IMG/VR virus record: IMGVR_UViG_3300003323_001224
Location: 1-64,000 of that record
DNA length: 64,000 bases
Direction: 5' to 3' (one strand)
Source of the DNA: a virus
Every line of letters starts with the position of its first letter. Within the stretch, counting starts at the first letter, position 1. The translations under genes were made by a program, and so were the position numbers. The notes beneath the pieces are model-generated. The model did no database searches, had not been told where the DNA came from, and saw only the letters and a list, made by a program, of their open reading frames with translations. Shown one piece after another: positions 25,251 to 60,275 of this stretch.

Positions 25251-27254
25251 ATGTATTATCCCATTGAGAACGGGACCGTGGAGGTCATACAGGACTATCC
25301 CTGTCAACTGCCCCCTGTTGGCTATGGAAAGAATAGGCTGACGGGCGAAGTGGAATACGTAGGTATTGTAAAGACCGATGCAAAGAAGGAAAAACAAAAA
25401 TGGAAAAGGTTTGAACTGCCGAAGGATTATGAGAAGAAAAAGAAACAGGAAGAGCAGCGCCAAAAGGAAGAACCAGATCATTATAATCCTGACCTGGAAA
25501 AGATCCGGACACAACATTGGAAATACCGCCTCTGCGGTTTTTGGTTATATATAAATGGCATACCGACCTACATTCCGCCGTCCTATTATATGTATCTGCA
25601 ATGGTGCCCGCTGGATATTGGTTACCCGGCTTATCGTGATACGGATAGGAGATTTTTTTATGTATGGGAATATTGCGTGGAAGATCCGCGCTGTGCTGGT
25701 CTGATTGATATTGAACGCCGACGGATGGGAAAAACCTATAAGAGCGGGTCTATATTACTAGACAGAACATCGATAGCCAGCCACCACCACGGCGGTATAC
25801 AAAGCAAGACAGGACAGGATGCCAAGGCGGTCTTTTTAAAGACAGTAGTTCCGTTTTTTAAAAAATACCCTGATTTCTTTCGGCCAGTATTTGATCAATC
25901 CAAGGGTATGTCACCGACCACTGAGCTAAGGTTTTTTCAGACCAGTATTAAAGGCAAACGCGCCAGCGAGATCGTCGATGCGCCTGAATTGGAATCATGG
26001 ATTGATTGGGGAACAGCAGAACCTTTTCATTATGACGGATCGAAGTTGAATACTTATGTGTGCGATGAATTTGGCAAAACCCTTGAATCGAGCGTTGTTG
26101 ACCGTTGGGATGTAGTCCGCTTCTGTTTAGATCAAGATGGAGATTGGTGCGGTAAAGCTCTCTTTACTTCTACAATAGAAGAGATGGAGAACGGCGGGGT
26201 AGATGCGAAAAAATTATGGGAAAATAGCAATCCCGCTGATAGAAATGAGAATGACAGAACCAAAACAGGACTATACAGATTTTTCTTACCTGCATACGAA
26301 ACGACATATTTTGATGAATATGGTATGCCAGAAGTTGAGAGAGCAAAAACTTTCTACCTGAATGAACGGGCGGGCTTGGTGAAGGACCCAAGACAGTTGT
26401 CATCTATCATTAGAAAGAATCCTTTCTCGATTGAAGAGGCATTTCGAATCGATGGAGATACGTGTTTATTCGATGCGATGAAATTAAATGATCAACTGGA
26501 TTTTTTGTCCTGGCGAGAGAACATAACAGAACGTGGAAACTTCGAATGGGAGAATGGAGAACGTTACACAAAAGTGGTTTGGAAGAAAAATGCGAACGGT
26601 AGATTTGAGATGCCTGTCGGTTTTCATTTCGACAATCCAAACGAAGTAAAAAAGATTAATGATCAGTTTATACCCCAGAATAATGTTCGGTTTGTATGCG
26701 GATGCGACCCTTTTAAATATGACCGCGTAAAAGATCAGCGCCGTTCCGATTGCGCGGCATTTGTATTCCAAAAATTCTCCCCAGGAGATGATACGTTTAA
26801 TGATTCGTTTGTTTGTAGATACAAACATAGGGCACCAACCACGGGCATGCAATATGATGATGTCATTAAGATGTGTTGGTATTTCGGCTGTCAGTGCCTT
26901 TTTGAATGCAATATCGATAACTGGAAAGAATATTTTAGGAATGCACATTGTTGGGCATTCCTGATGATCTTACCTGGAGAATCAGATCCGGGTCTTTACG
27001 CCGATGGAGGCGGTAAAACCCATCAGCTAATATGCGACTTGACTGAAGATTATATTGATAAGAATATTAAAAAGGTACTGTTTAAAGCGATGATTGAGGA
27101 TTGGTTGCTGTTTAAGTTGGACAAGACAACCGACTTCGATGAAACCATGGGCGCCGGCTATACATTGATTGCAGCTCGAAAGAAGCTCTACAGAAAAAAT
27201 GGAGATATCCAGCGTGACCTGACAGACTTTTTCAGAATTTATAAAGCAAGTTAA
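25251..27254 (+). CDS. terL: terminase large subunit
   Basis: Walker A RRRMGKT, Walker B YVCDEFGK, nuclease motifs GCDP and FDETMG. Confidence 0.9.
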   Translation: MYYPIENGTVEVIQDYPCQLPPVGYGKNRLTGEVEYVGIVKTDAKKEKQKWKRFELPKDYEKKKKQEEQRQKEEPDHYNPDLEKIRTQHWKYRLCGFWLYINGIPTYIPPSYYMYLQWCPLDIGYPAYRDTDRRFFYVWEYCVEDPRCAGLIDIERRRMGKTYKSGSILLDRTSIASHHHGGIQSKTGQDAKAVFLKTVVPFFKKYPDFFRPVFDQSKGMSPTTELRFFQTSIKGKRASEIVDAPELESWIDWGTAEPFHYDGSKLNTYVCDEFGKTLESSVVDRWDVVRFCLDQDGDWCGKALFTSTIEEMENGGVDAKKLWENSNPADRNENDRTKTGLYRFFLPAYETTYFDEYGMPEVERAKTFYLNERAGLVKDPRQLSSIIRKNPFSIEEAFRIDGDTCLFDAMKLNDQLDFLSWRENITERGNFEWENGERYTKVVWKKNANGRFEMPVGFHFDNPNEVKKINDQFIPQNNVRFVCGCDPFKYDRVKDQRRSDCAAFVFQKFSPGDDTFNDSFVCRYKHRAPTTGMQYDDVIKMCWYFGCQCLFECNIDNWKEYFRNAHCWAFLMILPGESDPGLYADGGGKTHQLICDLTEDYIDKNIKKVLFKAMIEDWLLFKLDKTTDFDETMGAGYTLIAARKKLYRKNGDIQRDLTDFFRIYKAS

Positions 27255-27782: not shown

Positions 27783-27790
27783 TTTAAATC

Positions 27791-30136: not shown

Positions 30137-30146
30137 TGTGGAAACG

Positions 30147-30216
30147 AGTGTCGATTTCGGTCAGATTTAAATCGAAAAATTACCGATAGCTTCCATGGTG
30201 CTTAATAATTTTGAAG
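30147..30216 (+). promoter_or_regulatory. putative late promoter, copy 2
   Basis: AGTGTCGATTTCGGTCAGATTT, then TAATTTTG (TAnnTTTG) starting 59 nt after the motif start, then ATG 3 nt later. Confidence 0.55.
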
Positions 30217-30543
30217 ATGCCAGAATACTATAAAAAAGTAGTCTGTAAGCAATTCACGCTCACGCCTGCCGAAAAAGAGGCTATTGATACTGGATGTACC
30301 ATCTACTTTGAAGGACAGCCCGTGAAGCAATCCGGGGGCGGTAGATACCACATATTATTACCTCTTGAAGACCGGTTATACCCCGTGCATGAGACCGACT
30401 GGATAATTAAGCATCCTGCGGTCGAGATTAAAAGAGACCACGAGTTTCGCGCTCAATATATAGAAGTAGAAGCGTTTGATCCTATTGCCACACAACAGAA
30501 GCTAGAGGCTTTCATGCGCGATAAAAACCAACAATCATTATGA
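30217..30543 (+). CDS. hypothetical protein
   Basis: ORF coupled to the scaffold gene; ATG at 30217. Confidence 0.5.
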   Translation: MPEYYKKVVCKQFTLTPAEKEAIDTGCTIYFEGQPVKQSGGGRYHILLPLEDRLYPVHETDWIIKHPAVEIKRDHEFRAQYIEVEAFDPIATQQKLEAFMRDKNQQSL

Positions 30544-31664: not shown

Positions 31665-31704
31665 GTCTGGCCCAATACCATTAATATATTAAACTCTACC
31701 AGAC

Positions 31705-33054
31705 ATGGCAGCAGGAGCACAAGGCACCTTAAACAAAGCGTTTATCAGTGCCATTTCTTTCCTCGATCAAAGGGACATCAACCCCAATTTATTGAATATT
31801 CAGCGGGACGATCAGTTTACGGATATTATGAAACTGGTGGGTCGGTACAAAGAGGCAAAGGTGCCGACTTATAACCATTTCGTCAACAACCCCGTATTTG
31901 CGACGGGAACAATATCCTCAGTGTCCAGCGGATATGGTACGGCCATCATGACCGTCGTCCTCACTTCCGCGACATCTGGTTATGCACGTGTAGGTGATCT
32001 TGCACGTTCAAATAATACTAACATGGTGGGGCAACAGGCATGGGTCTCCCAGGTTACAAGTGTATCCGGAGTGGATACCATCAAATTACAGTCGGTCAAT
32101 AATATGCCGCTGTATGGCGTTGCTAACGATATCCTATCTTTCTCCTCCAACGCGTTTGGTGAAAAATCCGATGCGCCGGTCAACCGGAAATATGGCGTAA
32201 CCCGGTACGTCAATCAGGTGCAAATCTTCCGTGAAGTGGATGAGATCACAGATGTACAGAAAGTTTCCAAGGTGGAAATTACGGTTGAGGGGCAACCGTA
32301 TTATACGCCCGTTCAGCACATCTATAAGTTGATTGCACTGAATGGTTTTATTTCTGCGCAAATGATCATTGGCGTGCAGTCATCTACACTCTTCTCGGAT
32401 GCTGCACCTTATTTAGCTGACGCTAACGGGAATCCCATTCAAACGACCATGGGGCTCGACGAGTATGTCACCACCTATGGGATGACCAGCACTGTTACCA
32501 CATTGGGGACAGTTGGCTTCACGGATGTGAATAATCTCATCGACAATTTCCTTTCGAAGAAGGCGCCTCATCAGTATATGGGGTGGGGCGGCAGTAAATC
32601 TAAACGTCCATATGATGTATGGTTAAAGAATCTCGGCTCATCTGGCGTCAATTCAGTACGTATGGTGGTCGATGGAAAAAGTGTGGATATGGAAGTTGAT
32701 CAATTTTCTTATGGAAATTTCGAATTTCAATTCATTAACCTTCCCATTTTTGACCAGCCGGAATTAATGGGACCCACCGTGCTGCCTGATGTTAATGGTT
32801 CCATTTATTGGACGCCAAAAGATAAGATTCAGGTCGTCGGCGGAGGTATGGAAGCACGTATGCAGATCAGGTATCTTCCAAAGGCGATGGCGGGTGGCAC
32901 CAGCATAAGTAATGGTATCATTACGGAATGGAATACCGGTGCACTGGCGCCCATTCCGACCAATGATTCCATGTACTGGCGTACAAACTGGTATACTAAC
33001 CAGGGCCTGGAAGTTTTGGGGGCCACCGTCTTTCAAAAGCAAAGAGTGGTTTAA
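31705..33054 (+). CDS. major capsid protein
   Basis: 449 aa after the scaffold; FGEKS..NQVQIFRE and TTMGL motifs; followed by a hairpin. Confidence 0.75.
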   Translation: MAAGAQGTLNKAFISAISFLDQRDINPNLLNIQRDDQFTDIMKLVGRYKEAKVPTYNHFVNNPVFATGTISSVSSGYGTAIMTVVLTSATSGYARVGDLARSNNTNMVGQQAWVSQVTSVSGVDTIKLQSVNNMPLYGVANDILSFSSNAFGEKSDAPVNRKYGVTRYVNQVQIFREVDEITDVQKVSKVEITVEGQPYYTPVQHIYKLIALNGFISAQMIIGVQSSTLFSDAAPYLADANGNPIQTTMGLDEYVTTYGMTSTVTTLGTVGFTDVNNLIDNFLSKKAPHQYMGWGGSKSKRPYDVWLKNLGSSGVNSVRMVVDGKSVDMEVDQFSYGNFEFQFINLPIFDQPELMGPTVLPDVNGSIYWTPKDKIQVVGGGMEARMQIRYLPKAMAGGTSISNGIITEWNTGALAPIPTNDSMYWRTNWYTNQGLEVLGATVFQKQRVV

Positions 33055-33077
33055 TCTCAGTATCCCTTCCACATACA

Positions 33078-33103
33078 GAGGAAGAGCCCGTAAGCTCTTC
33101 CTC
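33078..33103 (+). terminator. hairpin after the major capsid gene
   Basis: GAGGAAGAGC-ccgtaa-GCTCTTCCTC. Confidence 0.6.
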
Positions 33104-33128
33104 ATCTAATAAACCAAAAATCAAATCT

Positions 33129-34007
33129 ATGCTTCGCATTTACAAGGACCTGAACAATATTTCACCCGAGCTGCGGAAAAAACTAAATGAAGAACTAAAA
33201 GCAGTAGGCAAGATTGTAAAATATAAGTTTTACATCGCAAAAAAGAACCCCGATCCCGAGCACAAGCCTAATGAAGAGTATCTCTATCCTGCTCTTTATA
33301 CTCTTACCCCGGTCGTATTCTTTATCCCGGATGGAGAAGATAGGCGACAAGTAAGGATCGGACTGTTTGATACTATTGTGAGAAACAAAGATCAGGACGA
33401 GGAAAAATTCAATAGGGTGGCTTTGCATAATAGAGATGAAGGTATCCTAACCTTGGACCTGACACAACGAGAACATCAGGAGATGTTTGAATATTTGGAA
33501 CTTCATCCGAAAAATGAAAATGGTTTTTTCCGAGATAAGAACATCCCTGCCATGTTCTGCCGTATCGATGAGCTAAAGGAAGCTAAACAACGTTTGCGTA
33601 CACGGGAAATGAGGGGGCAGGCTATGATGGTGGCAACAAGATTAGACGAAGAAACGACGCGCAGTTTCGCCGCTGCAATGAACTGGAACGACTTGGATGA
33701 CTATGAAATCTTAAAGGATAAGATCACTACACTAGCTGATCAAGATCCTGAGTTTTTCAGAAAAGTAATTGATGATCCTTCTTTGGAGTTTAGAGCGACC
33801 GTCAAAAGAGCCATAGATGCAAATATTGTTAGTTGGCATCCGGCTGAAGGTAAATTAACCTGGACCTCTAATAATGGCACTATTTGCGTATTAGATCGTA
33901 ACAGTGCCGAAAAATATATTGAATCATTGGGCGAATGGCTAATGACCTCTAAGAACGGCCCTGAAACATTTAAAAAGATCAAAGCACTTCTTAGCGGCAA
34001 GGCCTAG
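33129..34007 (+). CDS. protein downstream of the major capsid gene (crAss-like)
   Basis: EYLELHPKN and AIDANIV motifs; position. Confidence 0.55.
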   Translation: MLRIYKDLNNISPELRKKLNEELKAVGKIVKYKFYIAKKNPDPEHKPNEEYLYPALYTLTPVVFFIPDGEDRRQVRIGLFDTIVRNKDQDEEKFNRVALHNRDEGILTLDLTQREHQEMFEYLELHPKNENGFFRDKNIPAMFCRIDELKEAKQRLRTREMRGQAMMVATRLDEETTRSFAAAMNWNDLDDYEILKDKITTLADQDPEFFRKVIDDPSLEFRATVKRAIDANIVSWHPAEGKLTWTSNNGTICVLDRNSAEKYIESLGEWLMTSKNGPETFKKIKALLSGKA

Positions 34008-34075
34008 CAATTGTTTAGATTTTGATTTTGGTTTATCGCTTTGTCTTCACCTGGCGATTTTATTAAAGATAGAAA

Positions 34076-35320
34076 ATGGCAGATCTGTCACAATACATAT
34101 CTATTGCTGTAGTGTTGGACAAAAGCCAACCAAGCCCCATTTTTCGTATTGTTGATAATAGCAACTATCCGCTGGGTGTGGCGCAAACGATTGCGGGGAT
34201 CTTGAGTGTAACCCAGCCAGATAATATTACCATTCAGAATACGGATTTCTCACAGCCAGATATATACTGGAATACGAGTGCCCTCGTACCTGCTGATCTT
34301 GAGCTGAGATTAGATAATACGGGCAGCTTCCAAAGAGGAGGCAGCGGCTATCGTATTATTTATACAGTTCGGGCGCCTGGGTATGATGATACTATTTTGA
34401 CGAAAGTCTTTTCGCTTTCTTACACTCCTCCTGCCATTGTCATCACCAATAATTTTGATATATTCACGCCGGATCTATCCGTCCAAGATAGCACCAACTA
34501 CAACCAATTATCCCTAGATTTTATTTCCGTTGTCAGGGCGTGGTTAGCGAACATTATTTCTGTTGAAGGCACCACGCAAATCATCAGCGGGACCGATCAG
34601 GTGTTCGATCTCAATTATCTTGGGAGTTACTACGACTCCCAATATGATATTACCCTATCCATCACTCCTCAATGGCGCTTACAGGGGACATCCAATTTTG
34701 TTACGATCATCGATGAATTGGCCGATGACATTACGCTCTATGCGCAAATACCGCCTTCATTAGCTGACCTACAAGTAGACCTTGCGACACTCAAAAGTGA
34801 ACTTGATGCAGCAGTCTGTGATTGCAATTTATACCGCATATTGTTTGATCGATACAATTTAGCTAATTCCATCTATTCGCAATTGGTGGCAAGAGGACAG
34901 GCAGGGTCGTTGTCTGGATTGGATGTATATATATATCAACTGGAAAAGATTTTCAATAATAATGTTAACCCCACCTATGAAAACACGAATGAGATAATTC
35001 CGGCTTATGACTGGAATACCGGTGGCGGAGGCAGTGTGGCTTGGACCAATATAACCGGAAAGCCCAGTTCTATCACTGTTGAATGGGTCGTCGGGCAAAT
35101 GGGGTATCCTGGTGAAGGGGCGACTACTTACACGAATACTAATATGGTCAATGTACCCGTAAGTAGGATTTATGTTTTTCGAAACGGATTTCCGCAATTC
35201 TCCTCCAATCCGCCAGATGGAGACACCTATTACACTAAGAATCTTGCTGATAACTTCCTGACTTTTTCGGTAGCGTTGGGTCTAAACGAAAAAATTATCA
35301 TACTCATACTTCCTCTATAA
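34076..35320 (+). CDS. virion structural/tail hub protein
   Basis: Beta-rich, with the fibre-type motif VAWTNITGKP; contains a CRISPR protospacer. Confidence 0.5.
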   Translation: MADLSQYISIAVVLDKSQPSPIFRIVDNSNYPLGVAQTIAGILSVTQPDNITIQNTDFSQPDIYWNTSALVPADLELRLDNTGSFQRGGSGYRIIYTVRAPGYDDTILTKVFSLSYTPPAIVITNNFDIFTPDLSVQDSTNYNQLSLDFISVVRAWLANIISVEGTTQIISGTDQVFDLNYLGSYYDSQYDITLSITPQWRLQGTSNFVTIIDELADDITLYAQIPPSLADLQVDLATLKSELDAAVCDCNLYRILFDRYNLANSIYSQLVARGQAGSLSGLDVYIYQLEKIFNNNVNPTYENTNEIIPAYDWNTGGGGSVAWTNITGKPSSITVEWVVGQMGYPGEGATTYTNTNMVNVPVSRIYVFRNGFPQFSSNPPDGDTYYTKNLADNFLTFSVALGLNEKIIILILPL

Positions 35321-39760: not shown

Positions 39761-39860
39761 AAATAGAGTCCTCATCAGGAATGACGAGGACTAGTTTAAA
39801 CCTAAACACCCGCTCTCAATGCTGAAAAGCGACTGTTACTTCGTAAATATAGGGAAATAT

Positions 39861-40325
39861 ATGAAAGATCCAAAAAATCAGGCCATAATAGATCGCCTCC
39901 ATCCTATTTTCCGTCCCATAGCCGTCAATTTTATAGAGGAGATTGAAAAAGATTTCGGCGTCACTATACATATTGATAGTGGATACAGGAGCTTTACTGA
40001 GCAACAGGGTATTTATAACCAAGGTAGAAGCAAGCCGGGAAAGATCATTAGTTGGGCAAAGCCCGGTAGTAGCTGGCACAATTATGGTTTAGCCATTGAC
40101 ATCTGTCCTTGGGCGGCGGATCATAGTAAGCTGGATTGGAACTATGATTTCAGTAAATGGCGCGCATGTGCGGAAAAGTATCGGCTGACGTGGGGTGGTA
40201 ATTTCCCTAAAGGTAAAATAGATGAAGATCATTATGAGTACAAGGCGGGGTACACAATTAAGCAGTTATTACAAAAACACATTGCTGGCGATTTTATTCC
40301 CGGAACTGAATATGTAAAATTATAA
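39861..40325 (+). CDS. endolysin, peptidase M15 (L-Ala-D-Glu type)
   Basis: SGYRS..EQ..Y.QGR, SWHNYGLAID, WGG and DEDHYE motifs. Confidence 0.9.
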   Translation: MKDPKNQAIIDRLHPIFRPIAVNFIEEIEKDFGVTIHIDSGYRSFTEQQGIYNQGRSKPGKIISWAKPGSSWHNYGLAIDICPWAADHSKLDWNYDFSKWRACAEKYRLTWGGNFPKGKIDEDHYEYKAGYTIKQLLQKHIAGDFIPGTEYVKL

Positions 40326-41225: not shown

Positions 41226-41301
41226 CGGGTAGTGCGGAAGTGGTCATCCTCCGTGCCTTGGAAGCACGGCAACGCTGGTTCGAATCCAGTCTACCCGACC
41301 A
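41226..41301 (+). tRNA. tRNA-Pro(TGG)
   Basis: Acceptor CGGGTAG/CTACCCG; anticodon arm CGTGC-CT-TGG-AA-GCACG; TTCGAAT; encoded CCA. Confidence 0.85.
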
Positions 41302-41390
41302 GGAAGGTATGCCAGGCGGTTGGTAGCGCCAGCCTGTCTTGAAAACAGGAACCCATTCAGTTGGGCGGGGTTCGAATCCTCTGCCTTCCG
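41302..41390 (+). tRNA. tRNA-Ser(TGA)
   Basis: Anticodon arm CCTGT-CT-TGA-AA-ACAGG; long variable arm; TTCGAAT. Confidence 0.75.
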
Positions 41391-41396
41391 CAAATG

Positions 41397-41424: not shown

Positions 41425-41445
41425 GTAGCGAGAGCGGGAATCGAA
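41425..41445 (-). repeat. duplicate of the tRNA-Met 3' end (candidate attP core)
   Basis: GTAGCGAGAGCGGGAATCGAA matches 41898-41918 at 20/21. Confidence 0.6.
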
Positions 41446-41476: not shown

Positions 41477-41896
41477 CTATTGCACTTGCTCTGAACTTAC
41501 ATATTCCGGTCTATCAAACGCGTCTCTTCTACGACAAGATATCTCAAAATTTTTCTTTTGATCGTTCCATTTTACTGTAATCATGAACTGTCCTGGTAGC
41601 CATTGCTGCTCTGTACAATGCAAATATCCGTGATCAGCCGGCGCATATCTGCCTGCAATGTAATAATAGATCGAGTCGCCTAATCCATGGCGCCTCTCTA
41701 TTCGAACCCATTTACCAGGCGTTAACAAGATTCCGTTAAGCTCTTGTTCACCATGCAAGGCGCAGCCAAATTCGAGATACTTTTTGTCCAGGTTCATCAC
41801 CCATAAAGTATCTACTTGGTTACACATTGTAGCAGAATGCTGTGCGGATGCGGTGTAACTCATCAGCACAACAAGTACTGTTGCGATCATTCTCAT
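41477..41896 (-). CDS. secreted hypothetical protein
   Basis: Signal peptide ending TASA-Q; flanked by tRNA 3'-end repeats. Confidence 0.6.
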   Translation of the reverse strand: MRMIATVLVVLMSYTASAQHSATMCNQVDTLWVMNLDKKYLEFGCALHGEQELNGILLTPGKWVRIERRHGLGDSIYYYIAGRYAPADHGYLHCTEQQWLPGQFMITVKWNDQKKNFEISCRRRDAFDRPEYVSSEQVQ

Positions 41897-41897
41897 A

Positions 41898-41972
41898 GTA
41901 GCGAGATCGGGAATCGAACCCGAGACCTTTGAGTTATGAATCCAATGCTCTTACCATCTGAGCTATCTCGCC
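41898..41972 (-). tRNA. tRNA-Met(CAT), elongator type
   Basis: GGCGAGATAGCTCAG...TT-CAT-AA...GGTTCGATTCCCGATCTCGCTA. Confidence 0.85.
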
Positions 41973-41995
41973 TTTAAATGCAAGATAGCAAAAAA

Positions 41996-43363
41996 TTAAA
42001 ATTTCCTTGAAAAATCATGCTCCATATTTCCTAGCATAAGGCCTAACCCATCCTTTAAATATTCTTCCGTCATGCTGGGTGTAGCATGCCCGCAGTATTG
42101 TTGGATAAGCGCAATAATAACCCCCCCCATGTACATATGGATGCAGCGGGTATGCTTCCAGGAATAATTAGTTAATTTAGGTGAAAATCCTCCAGGCTCC
42201 CGTACTTCATCCCTGAATTTGTCGCTAAAAAAAGCGCGATTCGTAGGGACCGGTCCCGGTGGCCCATCTATACCAAAGATGTAGTAGTGACCCGGACAAT
42301 CCTTTAAACCCATTCTGATAAAAAGTTCTATCAGTTCCGGTTCCATGTGAATGAATCTGCCGCGCCCCTTTTTTGCCTTTTCGTCGGGAATCATTAATTT
42401 ATTTCGACCCCAAAGAATATTTTCCACTTGTAAGTTACGTGTTTCCTTATCAGGCCGGGTGCCCGTGTAGTATATTACCTCACTAAAATCATGCAGGTAT
42501 TTTCCCCAATAAGGGACAGCCAGAATTGCCTTTTTCACAGCCGGTATGATACTATCTTCAAAAGGAGTATGCCTGATCTTAGTTCCCTTCCTCATCAACT
42601 CGACACCTTCAGCAGGGCTTTTGCTTATAATCTGTAGTTCGTCTTTACAATAATTAAAAAATGTAACAAACTTTTTTACCTTATCATTGTATGTCAAAGG
42701 CGCCCATTCCTTTTCCTCTCTCTTTGCCGCGAGAAAATCTTCCAGGTCATCTTGCGTGAAGGTCGCAATATCATCATACCACTGGCTTTCTTCCAATAGC
42801 GTATTTTTAGCTATATGCTTTTTCAACAAATTCAAGGGCACTGCATATGACTTTCGGTTCACTTCATCATAGTGTTGCAAAAAAAGCTCACTGGCCGCAT
42901 TCAAGGTAATGACCTGCTTTTTAGCTTTCTTTTCTGCCTCTTGTTCGGCTAAGATCCTATTATACTCGTCTATCTCATATTGGAATGGGCTGAAGCCATT
43001 CTCTAGCTCTTTAAGCATGGTGGCCAACAGCTGGAGCGCAAATTCAGGGTCCTGCGCGACTCCTTTGAAAACGCGAAAACGTTCCCATTCTCCCGGCGCA
43101 TTGTGTCGCTGTTGCAATACGGGCGGTAGCCCAGGAGGCACCTTAAAATAGTATTCAATATACTTTTTCTTCCCCTCAACGAGCTTGGGCGGTTTCCAGG
43201 TTATGTATTTTCCCGTTGACACTTTTTTGGCAATTTCCTTTGTCAAAAATACGAACTTTTTGATTTTCAGGTCTTTGTTTTTTTTAGGGTTGATCGCGTG
43301 TATCAACTCGGCATTTTCGACTTCCGGAGTATTGCTGATTTTCAGCGCTTTAGATTTTTGCAT
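41996..43363 (-). CDS. int: tyrosine recombinase/integrase
   Basis: Catalytic motifs YYTGTRP (R), YSWKHT and CGH..SMTEEY (Y); start at MQKSK. Confidence 0.9.
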   Translation of the reverse strand: MQKSKALKISNTPEVENAELIHAINPKKNKDLKIKKFVFLTKEIAKKVSTGKYITWKPPKLVEGKKKYIEYYFKVPPGLPPVLQQRHNAPGEWERFRVFKGVAQDPEFALQLLATMLKELENGFSPFQYEIDEYNRILAEQEAEKKAKKQVITLNAASELFLQHYDEVNRKSYAVPLNLLKKHIAKNTLLEESQWYDDIATFTQDDLEDFLAAKREEKEWAPLTYNDKVKKFVTFFNYCKDELQIISKSPAEGVELMRKGTKIRHTPFEDSIIPAVKKAILAVPYWGKYLHDFSEVIYYTGTRPDKETRNLQVENILWGRNKLMIPDEKAKKGRGRFIHMEPELIELFIRMGLKDCPGHYYIFGIDGPPGPVPTNRAFFSDKFRDEVREPGGFSPKLTNYSWKHTRCIHMYMGGVIIALIQQYCGHATPSMTEEYLKDGLGLMLGNMEHDFSRKF

Positions 43364-43471
43364 GGTGATCTTTTTTAGGCGATTTTGGCAATTTTTTGAC
43401 AATTTTTCTGAGCCAAATCTACATCGAATTCGCCATTTCTGCAATTAAATCCGGAGGATTTTACAATTAGG

Positions 43472-45740
43472 GTTGTGAATTCCTTTTAAAATTGAACGCT
43501 CAGTAACTAGAATACAAACTGATGTTCAACCTTTACTGTTGTAATTACATTTACAAAAAGTGCATTCAACATTGATACATATTACGGCAAGCAACATGAA
43601 TGTTGTGACTTCCTTTTCAAACATATTATTTAGGGAGGGCAATAAAATAAGATGGATTATAAAGCATTATAGTCGTACTATCCTTAGTACGCTACTAAGC
43701 TTGCGTTGTGACTTCCTTGTTCAGTGGTTCAATATCTTGCGATCTTCTCTAAAAAACAACAGTCAATGAGTGGCCAAAACTCTGGCAGTTGTGAATTCCT
43801 TTCAAAATGGATTTTCCTACAACCCAAGCTGCGTAGGTAAACCTTCCTGTTGTTGTGATTTCCTTTTAAATAGATGCAGCCTACAATTCCCCTTCAACTA
43901 ACTTTCAAAGCCATATAACCATTTTCTCGTTGTGATTTCCTTTTAAATAGATGCAGCCTACAACTGGTGAGTAGGTTGTTGTTTCCGAGGAGCAGTTGTG
44001 ACTTCCTTTCAAAATTAAGCTTCCTACAGCCAACCTCCTCTATCCTTATATTCCTGAGTTGTTGTGACTTCCTTTCAAAATTGAGCTTTCTACAACAAAT
44101 GCTTAAAATTGGATTCCATAGCCATAGTTGTGAATTCCTTTCAAAATTAAGCTTCCTACTACTGGACAGGGCCTGGGGTAACAGGACATAGGTTGTGATT
44201 TCCTTTCAAAATTAAGCTTCCTACAAAGTATAGCTTTTTGGATATTTTTCACGGTAGTTGTGACTTCCTTTCAAAGGAAAGGTTCTTGCAACTTTCATAG
44301 GTGGGGTTTACATTGTTATCGAGTTGCGACTTCATTTCAAAAATTGAGGTTGATACAAATGGCGCCCCTGGACAAGTTCTTTGTCACCGTTGTGACTTCC
44401 TTTCGAAATCAAGCTTTCTACAACCCTAGCCCACATAGGCACGGGATACCATTGGTTGTGACTTCCTTTCGAAATTAAGCTTTCTACAACTCATTAATCC
44501 TGCCTCCGCTTATCGTTCCTGTTGTGAATTCATTTCAAAATTAAGCTTCCTACAACAATTATGGCAAATATATATAACGACTCCTAAGTTGTGACTTCCT
44601 TTCAAAATTAAGCTTCCTACAACCCCTGGCGATTAACGTGACGTCCCATTAATGTTGTGACTTCCTTTCAAAATTAAGCTTCCTACAACCAAACAATGTC
44701 ATACTTTTATAATTAACTCGTTGTGACTTCCATTCAAAATTAAGCTTCCTACAACTAAGTTCACGAACATCATATGAAGATAGGAGTTGTGACTTCCTTT
44801 CAAAATTAAGCTTCCTACAACCAGCCGACGGGCGGCTATTTAAATAGGTTTGTTGTGACTTCCTTTGAAAATAAAGCTTCCTACAACAGTCAGCCCAATT
44901 ATAAGAGATACACCTATGTTGTGACTTCCTTTAAAAATAAAGCCTCCTACAACTTACCAAAACCAGTGACAACAACGGGACGTGTTGTGACTTCCTTTCA
45001 AAATTAAGCTTCCTACAACAATGTTCGATCATTCCTTTTTTGAAAGTACGTTGTGACTTCCTTATAAGCTTCCTACAACCGGCGCATGGCATGGGTACGC
45101 AAATGAAGTGTTGTGACTTCCTTTCAAAATTAAGCCTCCTACAACACATCAGCAGCGCAGATACCGGCAATTGCCGTTGTGACTTCCTTTCAAAATTAAG
45201 CTCCCTACAACAAAAATGAAAAAGGTTTACAATGTCTCGTAGTTGTGACTTCCTTTCAAAATAAAGCTTCCTACTACGGTCGATGTTTTGATAAGTCATC
45301 ACTCATAGTTGTGACTTCCTTTGAAAATAAAGCTTCCTACAACTGTTGTGAGCAACTACGTATAGGCGTGCTCTGTTGCGACTTCCTTTAAAAATAACCT
45401 TCCTACAACAGCGTGCCCAAGATCAGCTACGACGCCAATGTTGTGACTTCCTTTCAAAATTAAGCTTCCTGCAACCAGCAACCAATCCTCAATCATTGCT
45501 TTGAAGTTGTGACTTCCTTTCAAAAATAAGCTTCCTACAACAGGACCTGATAACAGGCCACACGACATTACGTTGTGAATTCCTTTCAAAATTAAGCTTC
45601 CTACAACCGAGATCCTTTTCACGTCAAACGACCAGCAGGTTGTGAATTCCTTTCAAAATTAAGCTTCCTACAACAGGCCCAGTCCGCTCCCGTCCGTCAG
45701 CCGCGTTGTGAATTCCTTTCAAAATTAAGCTTCCTACAAC
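43472..45740 (-). CRISPR. CRISPR array, ~34 repeats of 36 nt, ~30-nt spacers
   Basis: Plus-strand consensus GTTGTGA(C/A)TTCCTTTCAAAATTAAGCTTCCTACAAC with ~66-nt period. Repeats degenerate toward 43472, so the leader is on the right and transcription is on the minus strand. Confidence 0.97.
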
Positions 45741-45834
45741 CTGTTTCGCTAGAAAGCACACCTCTCCTGCATTACAGCCTATATTGTCACAATAAAAATG
45801 CGAAACATTCTCGAAAAAATGAGAATAATAAATT
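45741..45834 (-). promoter_or_regulatory. CRISPR leader
   Basis: Largely AT-rich non-coding stretch next to the most uniform repeats. Confidence 0.55.
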
Positions 45835-45915
45835 AAAAAAAGGATTCAGGAGTGCTTCACGGCCTCCCGCTCAGGACGTACAACCGCCCCCTAATATTTT
45901 CAAAGAACTTGATGA
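45835..45915 (-). ncRNA. candidate tracrRNA/scaffold
   Basis: Two hairpins, a GUUGUA loop and a UGAAUCCUUUU tail complementary to the repeat 3' end. Confidence 0.5.
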
Positions 45916-45919
45916 GATT

Positions 45920-47014
45920 TTATTGTATCAAAAGTTCAATCCCAAACTTTTTGCATTTGTATTGTATCATGTTTATCAATCCATGATACGACCAGTTTCT
46001 TAACAAGAACTGATTTTTTGGATCTTTCGCTTCCTCCTCTTTCTCCTTCTGATCAACGAGAATCAATTTGCCGCATCGATATGCGACGCACAAATCTACC
46101 AATTTCTTACTATAACTGTGCAATTTGGTCTGCACATAATGTCTTTCTTCTTCAGAGAAACGTTCAGTGGCTTGCAGCTTCCGTTTTCTACCTTTGCCTC
46201 CTTTGTTGAACCGAGCGGCTCTTTGCGCTCTTCTTAGTCCCTCTTGTATACTAATTCTACCGTATAAGAACTCATCTTTGGTCCCGATGGATAATTCCTT
46301 TCTATTTACTTTGGCCACAATAGGTACATCCAGGCTGAGAGAAGCTGTCATAGCAACGTCCACATCCAAAACTACTGGTTTTTTTTCAATTTCAAAGACT
46401 GCTAATAAAAAAATTTTCTTTTTCTTCAACTGTATAGAACTATCGCAAAGAGAATGTATGCCTTTCAAAGCTTCCTCCATCAGCAACCGGTTATTGCTAA
46501 AGTCATAACCGAAATGCGTTCGAAACGGAATGCCCCACACTTCAAATTTGTAATTTTCGCTGTCTTCAGATAAAGACCAATTGCGCATAAGAATAGTTGG
46601 CAGCGGCATTGGAATGTCTCGGCGATAGGTTCGCAAAGCGCGCTTTCCGGAAAAATATTCCTTCCGCTCCTTGCTAATGTTTGCTGTGACGAGGTTGTTT
46701 ATCGCAGAAACACTTGCCATTGGCGCCTCGCCCTTGAACTTTTTTGAATTTACCTGGTAGGTTGTATTGGGACGGCTCGTAGTTAATATCCCCTCTTCCG
46801 CTTTAATTCTATCCTTCAATGTGATTTTGAAATCATCATGAAGATAAAAGAATTCGGAAATATTTTCCTGAAAATATTGATGGGTGGCCGTGTGGTTAGC
46901 AGCCCTAAATATTATTTCATTCCATTTGCGCAATTTTGCATAATTATCTTTAAACTCTTTTTTATCAGAATCTATAAATAATTGAATTTTTCTTGTTATG
47001 ATATTTTTAGCCAT
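45920..47014 (-). CDS. cas12f: nuclease-dead Cas12f/TnpB-family RNA-guided protein
   Basis: ITRKIQL, GGKGRKRK, HSYSKKLVD..CGKL and LLRNWSY..IQYK..GI motifs. RuvC-I GxDLG is replaced by ASLSL, RuvC-II Glu by LILVDQ, and the protein ends before the zinc finger and RuvC-III. Confidence 0.8.
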   Translation of the reverse strand: MAKNIITRKIQLFIDSDKKEFKDNYAKLRKWNEIIFRAANHTATHQYFQENISEFFYLHDDFKITLKDRIKAEEGILTTSRPNTTYQVNSKKFKGEAPMASVSAINNLVTANISKERKEYFSGKRALRTYRRDIPMPLPTILMRNWSLSEDSENYKFEVWGIPFRTHFGYDFSNNRLLMEEALKGIHSLCDSSIQLKKKKIFLLAVFEIEKKPVVLDVDVAMTASLSLDVPIVAKVNRKELSIGTKDEFLYGRISIQEGLRRAQRAARFNKGGKGRKRKLQATERFSEEERHYVQTKLHSYSKKLVDLCVAYRCGKLILVDQKEKEEEAKDPKNQFLLRNWSYHGLINMIQYKCKKFGIELLIQ

Positions 47015-47106
47015 TAGGTATTATTTCGGGCAAAATATGCGAAATTAGTTACATTGGCAAATAAACTTCGATGTTAGCGGGGCAATTAAATAATTGAGAT
47101 AATCAT

Positions 47107-47872
47107 TCAATTTTTGTATTCTGAATTCGGCTTGACATCCTCCATCCCCATGAACTCATCAATAGGTTGGATAATGTATTTATCGTTGCTTATGATGTCG
47201 ATTAAAATAAGTGATTGACCCAATCGTTCTGATTTAAAATTGGTATGTCTTAGAGATCCCCTGATAGCACCCTGCGCTTCATTCAAATCCCAAAAGAAGA
47301 GACCTTTCCATATTCGGTGTGCATGCATAACAACAAATAGTTGTCCTCTTTTAGGCATTACTTTTTCTTTATTTCGATAGATTTCGGTCATCATTATTTC
47401 GTGGTTTTATTTGCTTCGTGTGCATTGTAAATAAATTTCACGGCTTCACCCGCGCATTTAATAAAATCGACATCAATAAATTTTTTGCCCATTGCGTGAA
47501 TTCTCCAGGTCGATTTTTTGCCAATTTGATATTTACCACTTCCTGGAGAACCATACTCCAATATAATCTTTAATCTATAAATATTGGCAACCGCTTCCAG
47601 CGCGGCAATTGCGTCTATTGCGGATGGACCTTTCATTAATTATCGCCGGCTTTTTCAATTTGATCATTCCATTTCACAAGCCCTGGCATGATCTGAGCCA
47701 AAGCATGGACGAGTTCTTTAGGATCTACTCCGGGTCCCAATACGACTCGATATTTGTCTTCGCCGAGTTCTTTCACAAGGCATAACATGGGCCATCCATT
47801 TGTTTGGTTGCACAATTCTTTTATGTTGCGCAAAATTTCGCTCGTCAGTTCTTTTCGTGTTTCTTCGGTCAT
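47107..47872 (-). CDS. three small coupled hypothetical ORFs (47107-47394, 47394-47636, 47636-47872)
   Basis: Overlapping stop and start codons. Confidence 0.5.
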
Positions 47873-47873
47873 A

Positions 47874-47944
47874 GGTGCGGTCGCCGGATTCGAACCGATC
47901 TTTAGGGTTATGAGCCCTATGTGCTGCCGTTACACTACCCCGCA
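47874..47944 (-). tRNA. tRNA-Met(CAT), initiator-like
   Basis: Anticodon arm TAGGG-CT-CAT-AA-CCCTA with three consecutive G-C pairs; TTCGAAT. Confidence 0.75.
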
Positions 47945-47952
47945 AAATTACA

Positions 47953-48025
47953 GTTCTCCCTACGGGATTCGAACCCGTGATGACGCCGTGAAAGGGCGCC
48001 GACTTAACCGCTTGTCGAAGGGAGC
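47953..48025 (-). tRNA. tRNA-Glu(TTC)
   Basis: Anticodon arm GCGCC-CT-TTC-AC-GGCGT; GGTTCGAATCC. Confidence 0.85.
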
Positions 48026-48026
48026 G

Positions 48027-48122
48027 GGTGCGGAGGGGAGGATACGAGCCCCCACGAAATTAACCTAGAATAAATTTCCATTCATTAGACTGAATGCCGT
48101 CTACCAGTTCCGGCACCTCCGC
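48027..48122 (-). tRNA. atypical tRNA-Leu-like gene with CTA in the anticodon loop (possible pseudo-tRNA)
   Basis: Acceptor GCGGAGG/CCTCCGC; D-loop GGAACTGGTAGAC; anticodon arm ATTCA-GTCTAA-TGAAT; T-loop CTCGTAT. Confidence 0.55.
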
Positions 48123-48138
48123 AAATCCAATACTTTAA

Positions 48139-48458
48139 AATAGGGGCAGGTCGTATCCTGCCTGCCCCCAATCATTGTTACGGTTTACAAGACCGCTGCT
48201 GATAATGAGTCAGCTGGCAAATTGAAGTTTTCAAACAGCCTAATGCTCATGCTGTCGTCTGACGATCTACCATCTGATCTACCCCCCCTCCGGGGCGGCT
48301 GCTCCGGAGGGGGGGACAGGACTCGAACCTGCGACTTTCAGATTACCGACTGCTTGACTTCAACAAGTGAAACTTAGCTTAAAGCTTTTGACGCAATGCT
48401 TACGCTCATATCTAGGATCTGTTTAAGCTGATGCTAAAGCTAAAGCTTTGTCAAAGAT
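48139..48458 (-). ncRNA. candidate ~320-nt structured RNA with a circularly permuted tRNA-like domain
   Basis: tRNA 3' half precedes the 5' half at 48251-48353; AGC hexamer repeats; terminal hairpin at 48143-48169. Confidence 0.65.
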
Positions 48459-49250
48459 TTATTTTCCGTGAATATATCCAAAGATCTTTTCAGCTGTTAG
48501 GCCAGACTGTACAACTTCAACTTCATTGGCTTTTGCCAAAGCCTCCCGCACTGACTCCTTAAGTTTACTAAGCCTATACAACATTGCCGCTCTATCGCGA
48601 TGGGAAATCTCACCGGAAAAATGCTGTACTGTCTGCATCCCCAAAACGACTTGCGTATCCTTAGAAGCTATTTGAGGCTTATAACCAGATCCATCCTTTA
48701 GCAGTTGAATATTTGGATCGGGGAGAATGTATGATTCCTTCAAGGTAGTTCTATTGGCACTTTCGAAAACTTCTGTTTCCCAAATATTTTCTGACTTCAT
48801 CTCGCTGTCGTTGGATCGCACCCATTTGATATCATCTCTCCGGACAGGTAGCGTTTCGTACATTTTTGATAATTCTTTCGAATCCAAAAATGACCGCAAG
48901 CGCAAAAGTTCAAGTGTCGTATACTTCCCCCAATCTTCGCCATCAACAATAAGATTGGCGGTCGCTTTGCCGGTGGCATTTGTCGCCTCAATGGCAAACA
49001 AATTTGTTATGTGATCGCCGCAGGTGTCCAGAAAATATTTGAGATACTCCGGCACTGAATTTTGTACCGGTTTGAATCCCCTTTTCGAAGGTTCATCTAA
49101 GTAATCGCCTTCTGCTTGATAAGTTTGCCGCACTCCCACGAAAATTTGGGACTTATGCTTATCAGCAAAAGTGGCTACATATTCCTTCAGCAATGCATTG
49201 TACTGAGTACCTGAATGTTCTGTTTTGGCAAGCAAAGCATTTTGTTTCAT
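48459..49250 (-). CDS. uncharacterised long helical-hairpin protein (possibly DUF7873-like)
   Basis: F.G..QTY, ATANLIVDG, LELLRLRSFL, ETLPVR, FSGEIS and ALAKANEVE motifs; start at MKQNALL. Confidence 0.6.
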   Translation of the reverse strand: MKQNALLAKTEHSGTQYNALLKEYVATFADKHKSQIFVGVRQTYQAEGDYLDEPSKRGFKPVQNSVPEYLKYFLDTCGDHITNLFAIEATNATGKATANLIVDGEDWGKYTTLELLRLRSFLDSKELSKMYETLPVRRDDIKWVRSNDSEMKSENIWETEVFESANRTTLKESYILPDPNIQLLKDGSGYKPQIASKDTQVVLGMQTVQHFSGEISHRDRAAMLYRLSKLKESVREALAKANEVEVVQSGLTAEKIFGYIHGK

Positions 49251-49267: not shown

Positions 49268-49341
49268 GTTCCGCAACCACGGATCGAACGTGGCACTCCC
49301 TGCTTAAAAGGCAGGTGCTCTAACCACTGAGCTATTGCGGA
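49268..49341 (-). tRNA. tRNA-Lys(TTT)
   Basis: Anticodon arm CCTGC-CT-TTT-AA-GCAGG; GTTCGATCC. Confidence 0.85.
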
Positions 49342-50284
49342 TTAATTCATCTTTTTCCTTTGCTGCATCCAAAAATCATTTACTTGTTTGAAAATATGCT
49401 CCCACCACGCTGTCAATTCATCTATATTGGGATTCGCATGGCTCTCTTTCATCTTATCGATTAATACCATGATACCACCCATAAAAGCCTCTTTCATCAT
49501 TTGCCATTGATCTGGTGGCGTAATGCTTTTAAACAATGATAAACGTTCCATGAAAGTTTCATATTCTTTGTCCAAATCCATAACGATTAATTCGATTTAG
49601 GTCGCTGCATTATTTTTCTCTCAATCGTCATGAATTCACTTCCCGAAAGCAACAAATCCGTTCCGTATTTCGTCCTTACCTTCATTCTCAGATCTCGCCC
49701 CGTTTTACTTTTTGGATCGGCGGCGCTGCCATCCAATTCGCACATTTCCACAAAATCGGTCTCCTCTCCTGACCATTCATGTCCAGGTAGCACAAGTATT
49801 TTTCGCCCTTGAAAGAAAGCGTTCAGGTCACCAATAGTTTTAAATTTTTTCATTGCGTATTCATTTATCCAAAAACGGTATCCCTGACTTTATCTCCATA
49901 TGTATATGGTATTGCAATTGTGTTTTGGCTGAATTAATGATCTTGCCCGCCAACTGGCTAATGTGGCCAATCTCTTTCACATTTACCTGACCCTTTCTAG
50001 CTTGCTCATAATACGACAATAGATCTTCTCTCAGATCGGTGATACCAATAATTTTTTCAGGGTGTTCCATTTTTCAAAGTCCACTTTAATGCTTGAAGGA
50101 TAATTATACAATCAACAAGATCGGTTTGTTTCATTAAAATTCTTCTATAATATGGCCTATCAGCTGTTGGTATCTTCCATGCACATATCATCCATGCAAC
50201 ATGCATAGCTCGTTGCCTATTTATGTTTCGTTCACAATGGTTGGAACAAATAGAACAGCCACATAAAAGTTGGTCATTACCCAT
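49342..50284 (-). CDS. four small hypothetical ORFs (49342-49581, 49587-49853, 49861-50070, 50057-50284)
   Basis: Packed, co-oriented ORFs. Confidence 0.45.
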
Positions 50285-50285
50285 G

Positions 50286-50357
50286 CTCCCGCACCTGGAT
50301 TCGAACCAGGGACCTAGAGATCCAAATTCTCTTATTCTACCGCTGAACTATGCGGGG
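50286..50357 (-). tRNA. tRNA-Gln(TTG)
   Basis: Anticodon arm AGAGA-AT-TTG-GA-TCTCT; GGTTCGAATCC. Confidence 0.85.
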
Positions 50358-50627
50358 TTATAGCATTCGTATTTTACTTAACTTTTCTCTATATAGCTTC
50401 TCCCTATTCACCCAAAATTCCTTTGGTACCTTCGTAACTTCTTCCAGCTTGCCTGCAAGATCTTGCGTGATCTTTTTATCCCCTTTTAATAGCCTCCACG
50501 TCATGTTGCCCGATAGTCCTAATCTTTCTGCCAACATTCTCACATTCCATCCTCTATCTTCCATTATCTCTTTTAGCGTATCCCCAGGGCAGGATAATAA
50601 TTCGAGTTCAATCTTTTTGTTGCTCAT
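50358..50627 (-). CDS. HigA-like Xre antitoxin (orphan)
   Basis: PGDTLKE..LAERLG..ITQDLAGKLE..FWVN matches the HigA signature. Confidence 0.75.
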   Translation of the reverse strand: MSNKKIELELLSCPGDTLKEIMEDRGWNVRMLAERLGLSGNMTWRLLKGDKKITQDLAGKLEEVTKVPKEFWVNREKLYREKLSKIRML

Positions 50628-50889
50628 GTGCTTCCAGTTTATATTCCTGCGGCCATTTATCTCCTGTCCATAAAATAGGCGAAGTCAAGGCTAATTGTTG
50701 TAAATTAAATTCTTCTTGAATTTCTGCAATGTCATCACCTCCTATAGCATGTCCACGATCACCATACGATGTTGGCTTACCTTCTTCATCGTAATATACT
50801 GTCCTTATCTCCAGGTAGACCGAAGATTCGATACCAGAAAAATTTTGTTCAATAGCCATTACGCGATAATTCCAAGTCATAATTCTCAT
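50608..50889 (-). CDS. hypothetical phage protein
   Basis: WNYRV..VYYDEEGKP motif, common in phages. Confidence 0.55.
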   Translation of the reverse strand: MRIMTWNYRVMAIEQNFSGIESSVYLEIRTVYYDEEGKPTSYGDRGHAIGGDDIAEIQEEFNLQQLALTSPILWTGDKWPQEYKLEAHEQQKD

Positions 50890-51031
50890 TTTAATAAAGC
50901 GAGTTGCCCATCACGCGCACCTGGGCCAGGTGTTGAACCGAAGTCTCGCCAGTCCGCCGGAAAGGAGAGATAATCGTGCGCTTATTGACTCGCTCAGGAT
51001 TTACCCCTTTATAAATCCTACACCGTAAGAA

Positions 51032-51105
51032 GGTGGCACCGGGCAGAGTCGAACTGCCTACGCCGGGATTTTCGGTCCCGCGCTCTACCGCTGAGCTACG
51101 ATGCC
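51032..51105 (-). tRNA. tRNA-Phe(GAA), with C33
   Basis: Anticodon arm CGGGA-CC-GAA-AA-TCCCG; GTTCGACTC. Confidence 0.8.
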
Positions 51106-60146: not shown

Positions 60147-60204
60147 AATGAGCCCCGCGTAGAAACGCAGGGCGTGTTGTTGATGTGTTCTAACTTCAAA
60201 ACAG

Positions 60205-60275
60205 AGACCATCCAGGGAGTCGAACCCTGCTGCACGGTTTTGCAGACCGCGTGCTAACCGCTCACACAGATGGTC
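60205..60275 (-). tRNA. tRNA-Cys(GCA)
   Basis: Anticodon arm GCGGT-CT-GCA-AA-ACCGT; U discriminator. Confidence 0.8.

Follow-up and report, generated by a model that had tools for sequence, protein, structure and literature searches.

Spacers nearly matching a phage's own genes in a CRISPR array beside a predicted nuclease-dead Cas12f: a possible module for the exclusion of sibling phages

We analyzed the first 64 kb (the whole stretch of 64,000 nucleotides, hereafter the window) of a 76,638-bp IMG/VR virus record, IMGVR_UViG_3300003323_001224, for which CheckV completeness is 100%, and focused on one spacer of a CRISPR (clustered regularly interspaced short palindromic repeat) array that resembles a late gene of the same phage. 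The spacer (44293..44322, minus strand) belongs to a system at 43472-47014 that comprises the array, a scaffold RNA, and a gene for a predicted nuclease-dead Cas12f (dCas12f). We consider it moderately probable that the spacer is a unit of a phage-borne, type V-F-derived dCas12f module that excludes sibling phages by binding. The match is soundly treated as a supporting observation for this system rather than as an independent discovery. That the array is carried by a phage, as first proposed, is borne out by the record, which represents a complete virus with terL, portal, endolysin, and integrase genes.

The match itself was reproduced in each detail of the original prediction. In the sense of the CRISPR RNA (crRNA), the spacer is TCGATAACAATGTAAACCCCACCTATGAAA (plus strand, TTTCATAGGTGGGGTTTACATTGTTATCGA), and it aligns without gaps to plus-strand positions 34953..34982, TCAATAATAATGTTAACCCCACCTATGAAA, inside the open reading frame (ORF) 34076-35320, with 27 of 30 identities. 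The mismatches fall at guide positions 3, 8, and 14 (window positions 34955, 34960, and 34966), the final 16 nt are perfect, and the 5' flank ATTT is present at 34949-34952. For comparison, 300 shuffles of the spacer reached 18-23/30 against both strands of the whole 76.6-kb genome, and the analytic expectation for at least 27/30 over all 29 cleanly delimited spacers, among which this one is the 22nd counted from the leader, is ~3e-6. The site encodes FNNNVNPTYE and the spacer FDNNVNPTYE; of the three differences, two lie at codon position 3 and the other turns Asn into Asp.

This spacer is not the only one of its kind. Four of the 29 resemble the phage's own genome (28, 28, 27, and 24 of 30 positions), with differences that are mostly of the wobble type, while the remaining 25 reach 19-20/30 at best within the window. 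The companion spacer (45476..45505, minus strand), which the original prediction had matched to terL, does agree with it at 28/30 (27081..27110, plus strand); its mismatches, at guide positions 3 and 9, are both synonymous changes at codon third positions, and the 5' flank is ACTG. A third (44822..44851, minus strand) matches 28/30 positions of the minus strand at genome positions 73264-73293, beyond the window, with mismatches at 11 and 20 and the 5' flank TCTG; this site is a hairpin located where ORF 72678-73289 ends. The fourth and weaker one (44425..44454, minus strand) matches genome positions 71809-71838, also beyond the window, at 24/30, with mismatches at 7, 8, 13, 21, 23, and 25 and the 5' flank AGAA.

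The gene that contains the site under study (34076..35320, plus strand) is a late gene with a 414-aa product; in the late block, it is preceded or followed by the portal and tail-like genes that enclose it. It is conserved in a family of phages of 74-81 kb, with 133 homologues on contigs of that size. In an AlphaFold model of the product (predicted local distance difference test, pLDDT, 90), Ig/FN3-like sandwiches in tandem are accompanied by a helical segment and by a beta domain at the C terminus. The earlier label of 'structural gene' agrees with the late-block position and the modeled fold, while no named family was found to back it: Foldseek returned only generic Ig/FN3 matches (template modeling score ~0.2), and ESM Atlas scores of 0.76 were below a meaningful level. 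The product is probably a virion or tail-associated protein without a named function. The matched site falls in KIFNNNVNPTY, a motif kept in the 133 homologues, and the rare Glu after PTY (the PTYE variant) is common to the spacer and this phage. Further, the spacer bases at guide positions 8 and 14 are present at the homologous site of two relatives (G002 and G003).

Because of the four near-self spacers, the wobble-type differences, the natural alleles at positions 8 and 14, and the common PTYE, derivation of the spacer from a sibling, close relative, or ancestor of the phage is well supported and is the best reading. In the relatives G001-G003, the spacer finds only 20-22/30, and the donor was closer to this phage than these are. 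As a separate observation, a 78%-identical homologue of the target protein (P0122) and a 67%-identical dCas12f (P0003) each lie on a 13,527-nt Logan contig; the two probably represent one sibling phage that also carries the module. The claim of repeated acquisition from related phages holds as far as a close-relative or ancestral source and four of 29 near-self spacers are concerned, but not as an activity of the phage itself: Cas1 has no match in the 76.6-kb genome, so acquisition would need a host integrase or would predate capture of the module.

The effector gene, dcas12f (45920..47014, minus strand), lies directly upstream of the array on the minus strand. Its 364-aa product matches the PADLOC Cas12f profile (E = 9e-46), with the match ending at profile position 339 of 399, and in a phmmer search it aligns over residues 7-363, at ~50% identity, to PDB entry 9n9c, 'Nuclease-deactivated Cas12f' (365 aa; E = 1.4e-91). 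Relative to the active Cas12f 9nzo, Ser225 occupies the position of the RuvC-I Asp and Val320 that of the RuvC-II Glu, and the protein ends in GIELLIQ, before the zinc finger and RuvC-III. With both RuvC acidic residues replaced and RuvC-III absent, the phage Cas12f cannot cut. Since the effector is nuclease-dead, 'targeting' can only mean binding and not cleavage by the phage Cas12f, and the original description of the spacer as sibling-targeting stands for the near-self match but not for cleavage. The same C-terminal end is found in >500 homologues of ~365 aa, which makes the truncation a family trait rather than a local accident, and a 364-aa homologue with 89% identity exists elsewhere. 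A frameshifted C terminus was also considered, and no frame for the missing part was found in 45741-45919.

Relatives of this dCas12f are encoded by at least 115 IMG/VR contigs. Among the 80 viral loci kept (L005-L084), truncated forms (360-400 aa) are in most cases followed closely by a scaffold RNA and a short array (3-19 repeats), and RuvC-III and the zinc finger are retained in some longer forms (L035 and L038). Dead Cas12f thus seems widespread among phages and not an isolated case. In jackhmmer searches with three sigmaE queries, covering the best 80 loci of each collection (bacterial and viral), a sigmaE gene (268-283 aa) stood directly upstream of dcas12f in 78 of the 80 bacterial loci and in one of the 80 viral loci, which is not this phage. 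Sigma70_r2 has no match in the phage genome, and Sigma70_r4_2 has a single weak one at a distance of 19 kb. Scans with Pfam, NCBIfam, and PADLOC revealed no cas-like neighbors, and the loci showed no conserved protein partner beside dcas12f. Cas13b and Cas9 were sought in the window and not found, the large ORFs being virion proteins. A FastTree phylogeny of the same sample, rooted on full-length viral Cas12f, placed the truncated proteins in one clade, whose deepest branches are viral and array-linked. Four viral proteins, one bacterial protein without sigmaE, and the phage protein fall at the base of the clade with the sigmaE-linked bacterial proteins, at a poorly resolved fork.

Downstream of the gene lies a scaffold RNA resembling a trans-activating CRISPR RNA (tracrRNA), at 45845..45890 on the minus strand, with two conserved stem-loops and a single copy in the genome. 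A scaffold-type element is conserved downstream of dcas12f in every locus of the comparison, and RNAalifold, applied to 25 diverse copies, recovered two stem-loops with 13 pairs, eight of which show compensatory changes. The stem-1 loop of the phage scaffold, GTTGTA, is complementary to the repeat end ACAAC. More generally, the loop hexamer pairs with the final six bases of the repeat (gene strand) in 15 of 17 distinct scaffold/repeat combinations, the two exceptions being register errors in repeat boundaries, and loop and repeat end covary (GTTGTA/CACAAC, GTTCGG/TCGAAC, GCTGTA/TACAGC, GTTGGA/TCCAAC, and ATTTTG/CAAAAT). This pairing assigns the crRNA to the minus strand and puts its guide 3' of the repeat, a motif being expected 5' of the protospacer, and so confirms the strand polarity that the original prediction had assumed. 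In bacterial single guide RNAs, '...ACAAC' likewise stands immediately before the guide, and the phage RNA would be a split, tracr-plus-crRNA version of these guides. The scaffold tail TCCTTTT is complementary to GAAAGGA of the repeat (7-bp), where bacterial guides have a stem; this second duplex is plausible, yet no better than those of shuffled sequences. A search for an anti-repeat among inverted repeats in 41900-48500 gave nothing clear, and it was the comparison of loci that revealed the scaffold. In the crRNA of the spacer under study, TCGATAAC...TATGAAA follows 3' of the repeat; the guide has the mRNA sense of the target gene and would therefore pair with the template DNA strand, and the terL guide is likewise oriented for template-strand pairing.

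The array (43472..45740, minus strand) begins directly after the integrase gene and comprises ~33 units of a 36-nt repeat, GTTGTAGGAAGCTTAATTTTGAAAGGAAGTCACAAC (crRNA sense), and 30-nt spacers. Its repeats are decayed at the leader-distal end, 43472-43964. Because the decay runs toward 43472, the leader is placed at the 45741 end, where ~105 nt (45741..45844, minus strand) separate the scaffold RNA from the first repeat. Most repeats are only 0-2 positions off the consensus, and many are point-mutated. The repeat that precedes the spacer under study in the crRNA (44323..44359, minus strand) is 37 nt long and differs from the consensus by seven substitutions and one insertion, with GAAAGGA changed to GAAATGA and TCACAAC to TCGCAAC. 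Elsewhere in the array, the repeat at 45050-45079 is shortened to 30 nt by an internal deletion of 6 nt, the distal end at 43541-43740 holds repeat remnants at an irregular spacing of 62-104 nt, and a GAATTCC variant occurs in the first three leader-proximal repeats and in four older ones. Mean spacer G+C is 0.45, near the 0.43 of the phage. At 77%, the G+C content of the newest spacer (45675-45704) exceeds the 43% of the phage, as does that of several others (57-59%), and a non-sibling source is possible for some spacers.

A search of the spacers against phage and host collections, suggested with the original prediction, yielded the near matches to the phage's own genome for four of 29 spacers and no exact protospacer. 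Specifically, exact and N-masked spacer searches and a search with the repeat core found nothing beyond chance in GenBank phages, PLSDB plasmids, IMG/VR, and Joint Genome Institute (JGI) metagenome contigs, where the array as a whole likewise had no meaningful match, and all 29 spacers gave nothing above 23/30 in ~2 Mb of loci that included three related phage genomes. Against five Chitinophagaceae genomes, the array showed only repeat-to-repeat similarity and no spacer-length matches. Searches of IMG/VR and JGI contigs with the repeat core and exact spacers found no second copy of this array type.

The mismatches and flanks of the four near-self sites bear on two further proposals. Clustering of mismatches toward the 5' end holds for the two spacers in which it was first seen (nominal P = 0.02), but it is not significant when all four are considered, nine of 13 mismatches lying at positions 1-14 (P = 0.09). 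Read in crRNA sense, the 5' flanks end in TTT, CTG, CTG, and GAA, so that YTN, the protospacer-adjacent motif (PAM) originally suggested, is present at three of three strong sites and none of one weak site; YTN was defined from two of these sites, the third is the sole independent one (chance ~0.14), and none is an authentic protospacer. The phage's own near-self sites may have been selected to escape. In relatives, conserved Lys-Ile-Phe codons set the flank of the late-gene site as A-T-(T/C/A)-T, so the −1 base of the donor was almost certainly T. The characterized Fta dCas12f recognizes a single 5'-G motif, whose base pair is stacked on or read by M85, R90, and H110 (10.1101/2025.06.10.658880). 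These residues are P, Q, and N in the phage dCas12f, which, by this comparison, may well read a motif other than 5'-G.

In the explanation that we favor, the spacer would have been taken from a very close relative or ancestor and presumably integrated by host Cas1-Cas2. In a lysogen or co-infected cell, the dCas12f-tracr-crRNA complex would then bind relatives that carry the exact site, and the bound complex would act by occupancy as a roadblock to transcription or replication, in the manner of CRISPR interference, giving a sequence-specific exclusion of siblings. The phage's own copy would be spared because its three mismatches all lie within the 14 nt nearest the motif, the part of the guide in which dCas12f shows the greatest sensitivity. 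This sparing is in line with what is known of related proteins, in that complementarity matters most near the motif (PMC13472631) and a 7-bp partial R-loop is the first checkpoint (10.1101/2025.06.10.658880). Several points weigh against the proposal. The repeat before the spacer is the most degenerate internal repeat of the array, and the unit may yield no working crRNA. The strand of the third near-self site is opposite to that of its ORF, which leaves no uniform strand rule. Exact protospacers were found neither for this spacer nor for the terL spacer nor, in IMG/VR, for the newest spacer, and 25 of the 29 spacers are without any match. Other phage-borne dCas12f arrays (ten arrays with 36 spacers in seven records, four of them incomplete) contained no near-self matches. 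Finally, exclusion of phages through binding alone by a 364-aa dCas12f is putative, and characterized dCas12f relatives activate transcription rather than block it (PMC13472631).

A lead on how spacers could have been taken up comes from type II-C loci (cas9-cas1-cas2) of Chitinophagaceae, which have 47-nt repeats and 29-30-nt spacers. The start of their repeats, GTTGTGATTTGCTTTCAA(A/G)A, agrees at 20 of 22 positions with that of the phage plus-strand repeat, GTTGTGACTTCCTTTCAAAA, and the leader-distal repeat end and a few leader-junction bases are also alike between the II-C and phage arrays. Arrays of this kind were present in three of 401 sampled Chitinophagaceae genomes and in two of the five searched first; the loci are on contig 55 of G018, a Ginsengibacter metagenome-assembled genome (L194:846-12540), on contigs 33 and 17 of G015, and in G088, G106, and G367. 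Ends of the form GTTG...CAAC are common to several CRISPR types, and part of the II-C likeness may be generic. The likeness of the repeats points to a possible route of uptake in trans and a possible hint at the host. If a host II-C integrase fills the array, the 3' PAM of II-C and the 5' motif of type V would be the same physical flank. A broader scheme, which we regard as doubtful, is that dead-effector arrays constitute a natural interference among sibling phages by occupancy, filled with 30-nt spacers by host II-C Cas1-Cas2 via a mimic repeat, with the type V effector reading the other strand, and that the lineage represents an array-bearing intermediate toward sigmaE-coupled systems.

Other explanations can be held against the same evidence. 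It is possible, if on the unlikely side, that the spacer originated as proposed above but that the unit, and perhaps the whole array, is a decaying passenger captured with dcas12f. The seven substitutions and one insertion in the repeat 5' of the spacer, two of them in the part expected to pair with the scaffold, are what such decay would leave, as are the point-mutated repeats, the 6-nt deletion, and the decayed distal end; the genome without Cas1 and the absence of a second array of this type in exact searches of IMG/VR or JGI contigs agree with it. Yet dcas12f is intact and of full family length, with its 89%-identical 364-aa homologue, the scaffold keeps both stems and its loop-to-repeat complementarity, most repeats have stayed within two positions of the consensus, and the A-to-G change in the repeat end still permits a G-U pair with the scaffold loop. 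Rather improbable, in our judgment, is a self-regulatory role in which the near-self spacers guide dCas12f to the phage's own genome, for example to damp late genes in lysogeny, with the mismatches tolerated. Four spacers do point at the phage genome, two of them at late genes, the bacterial relatives are gene regulators with 14-16-nt guides (PMC13472631), and the region next to the integrase, where the module is found, is of the lysogeny type. Against this, every near-self site has at least one mismatch within guide positions 1-14 (3/8/14; 3/9; 11; 7/8/13), and the motif-proximal seed is where the relatives show the greatest sensitivity; three of the four sites are internal to ORFs or at their ends and not at promoters; the genome offers no counterpart for 25 of 29 spacers; and the synonymous-type differences resemble divergence between homologues more than tuned guides.

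By analogy with the bacterial systems, the phage dCas12f might recruit a host sigmaE in trans and start transcription ~46 bp downstream of matched sites, which we consider quite improbable. The ~50% identity to the Fta dCas12f and a basal place in the clade with the sigmaE-linked proteins would suit this, and three of the four sites, in crRNA sense, are oriented so that transcription would run toward the downstream genes, with that at 71809 ~90 nt upstream of an ORF start. However, the phage has no sigmaE, in keeping with the one of 80 viral against 78 of 80 bacterial loci, its protein lies outside the sigmaE-linked clade among array-linked viral proteins, a partner supplied in trans is pure assumption, and the seed mismatches at the phage's own sites oppose use on its own genome. 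Very improbable is that the array, transcribed from the plus strand, serves as a type II-C-like crRNA precursor for a host Cas9 that cuts relatives, with dcas12f irrelevant. The 20/22 likeness of the first 22 nt of the plus-strand repeat to the Chitinophagaceae 47-nt repeats and the similar spacer length there (29-30 nt) prompt the idea, and the pattern of mismatches fits it equally well, the PAM-proximal end being the same physical end of the spacer. Among the 401 Chitinophagaceae genomes, however, no repeat came closer than two mismatches in 22 nt and none was a 36-nt version; covariation across many loci ties the opposite repeat strand to the scaffold beside dcas12f; and repeat decay marks the low-coordinate end as leader-distal, which fits transcription from the dcas12f side.

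The module occupies a place in the genome where related phages have none. The tyrosine integrase gene (41996..43444, minus strand), from which we take the phage to be temperate, abuts the decayed end of the array, and its homologues stand in the same place in related phages without the CRISPR module. Two complete relatives (74 and 79 kb) are syntenic throughout, integrase included, and lack the 364-aa dcas12f ORF, so the module is an accessory insert in a variable region. Other landmarks are the large terminase gene terL (25251-27254), the portal (27791-30136), the endolysin (39819-40325), and, between terL and portal, a NUMOD4/HNH_3 homing-type endonuclease gene (27255-27782), which is found in relative G003 and unmatched in G002 and has the terL near-self site ~150 nt upstream. 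ARAGORN called ten tRNA genes (in the regions 41226-41391, 47874-48123, 49268-51105, and 60204-60275), among them an odd 98-nt call at 48026-48123 with its anticodon undetermined. The 3' end of the tRNA-Met gene by the integrase (41898-41972) is copied as 21 nt (20/21) at 41425-41445, 473 bp away; the copies flank ORF 41477-41896 and have the appearance of an attachment-site (att)-type duplication. An island bounded by this tRNA-Met gene and that at 47874-47944 was considered and set aside, the two sequences being unrelated and no flanking direct repeat being found. From the dCas12f relatives and the root-metagenome source alone, we infer a host in Chitinophagaceae or other Bacteroidota. Three root-metagenome DNA runs (X1-X3, from one study), compared over window positions 26950-35100, contain the phage as short low-depth contigs at 100% identity, none covering 34953-34982 or 27081-27110 and thus none giving allele information at these sites; relatives <90% identical are present in the same study.

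Among known systems, the dCas12f of Bacteroidota works with a dedicated sigmaE, which has a C-terminal extension and is encoded in an operon with dcas12f, and initiates transcription at positions set by the RNA, at a distance of 45-48 bp from the motif, with fixed 14-16-nt guides fused to the scaffold (Hoffmann et al., Nature 2026, PMC13472631). The phage system is like these in having a ~365-aa protein that shares ~50% identity from end to end, has identical RuvC substitutions, and is truncated alike at the C terminus, and a homologous two-hairpin scaffold directly downstream of the gene with the guide 3' of '...ACAAC'. It is unlike them in several respects. The phage module has no rpoE or helix-turn-helix partner, its guides come from a ~33-unit array with 30-nt spacers through a dual RNA and not a single chimeric guide, it is carried by a phage, its spacers resemble phage genes and not susCD promoters, and its protein branches outside the sigmaE-linked clade with the Fta motif-reading residues changed. 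The same work describes a sigmaE-less, CRISPR-associated dCas12f cluster in bacterial loci, whose guides sometimes match an efflux-pump promoter and which may comprise repressors (PMC13472631, Extended Data Fig. 1a,b). With this cluster, the phage locus shares a dead Cas12f, an adjacent array, a covarying RNA between the two, the lack of rpoE, and a Chitinophagaceae connection; unlike the cluster as published, it is found in a complete temperate phage, its array is long, and its recognizable matches are only near-copies of the phage's own genes. In that paper, the word 'phage' occurs once only, in the introduction, and phage-borne loci are not mentioned (PMC13472631). A natural phage-encoded dCas12f is not described in the literature that we searched.

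Virus-borne mini-CRISPR arrays are described in interviral conflicts (Medvedeva et al. 2019, PMC6858448). The phage system resembles them in an in-virus array without adaptation genes, in spacers that would be directed toward close relatives, and in a proposed role in exclusion. It differs in that the phage brings its own dead effector and scaffold with ~33 units, and in that its matches are only imperfect ones to itself, with no exact match to another virus. Such mini-arrays reportedly hold one or two spacers and rely on a repeat copied from the host and on host effectors. In concept, and by analogy, the phage module would stand closest to these virus-borne arrays in conflicts between related viruses. 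Type V-F Cas12f/Cas14 proteins (structures 7c7l and 8j12) are miniature TnpB-derived nucleases that use a tracrRNA. The phage system is like type V-F in its miniature effector, its 36-nt repeat with GTTG...CAAC ends, its repeat-pairing tracr-like RNA, and the motif expected 5'; it is unlike type V-F in that the RuvC center is destroyed, the zinc finger and RuvC-III are absent, and there is no cas1, cas2, or cas4. With neither an active RuvC nor adaptation genes, it is not strict type V-F immunity.

Thus far, dCas12f has been described as a bacterial regulator that activates when paired with sigmaE and, beside a few arrays, putatively represses; here, it is found in a complete temperate phage. 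The locus, at ~3.6 kb, is self-contained, and its own 27/30 and 28/30 sites are ready mismatch controls. Truncated viral forms branch deeper in the tree than the bacterial clade linked to sigmaE, which is relevant to the way in which CRISPR immunity gave rise to RNA-guided transcription. Should the module prove functional, it would represent a natural interference of phage against phage by RNA-guided binding without cleavage.

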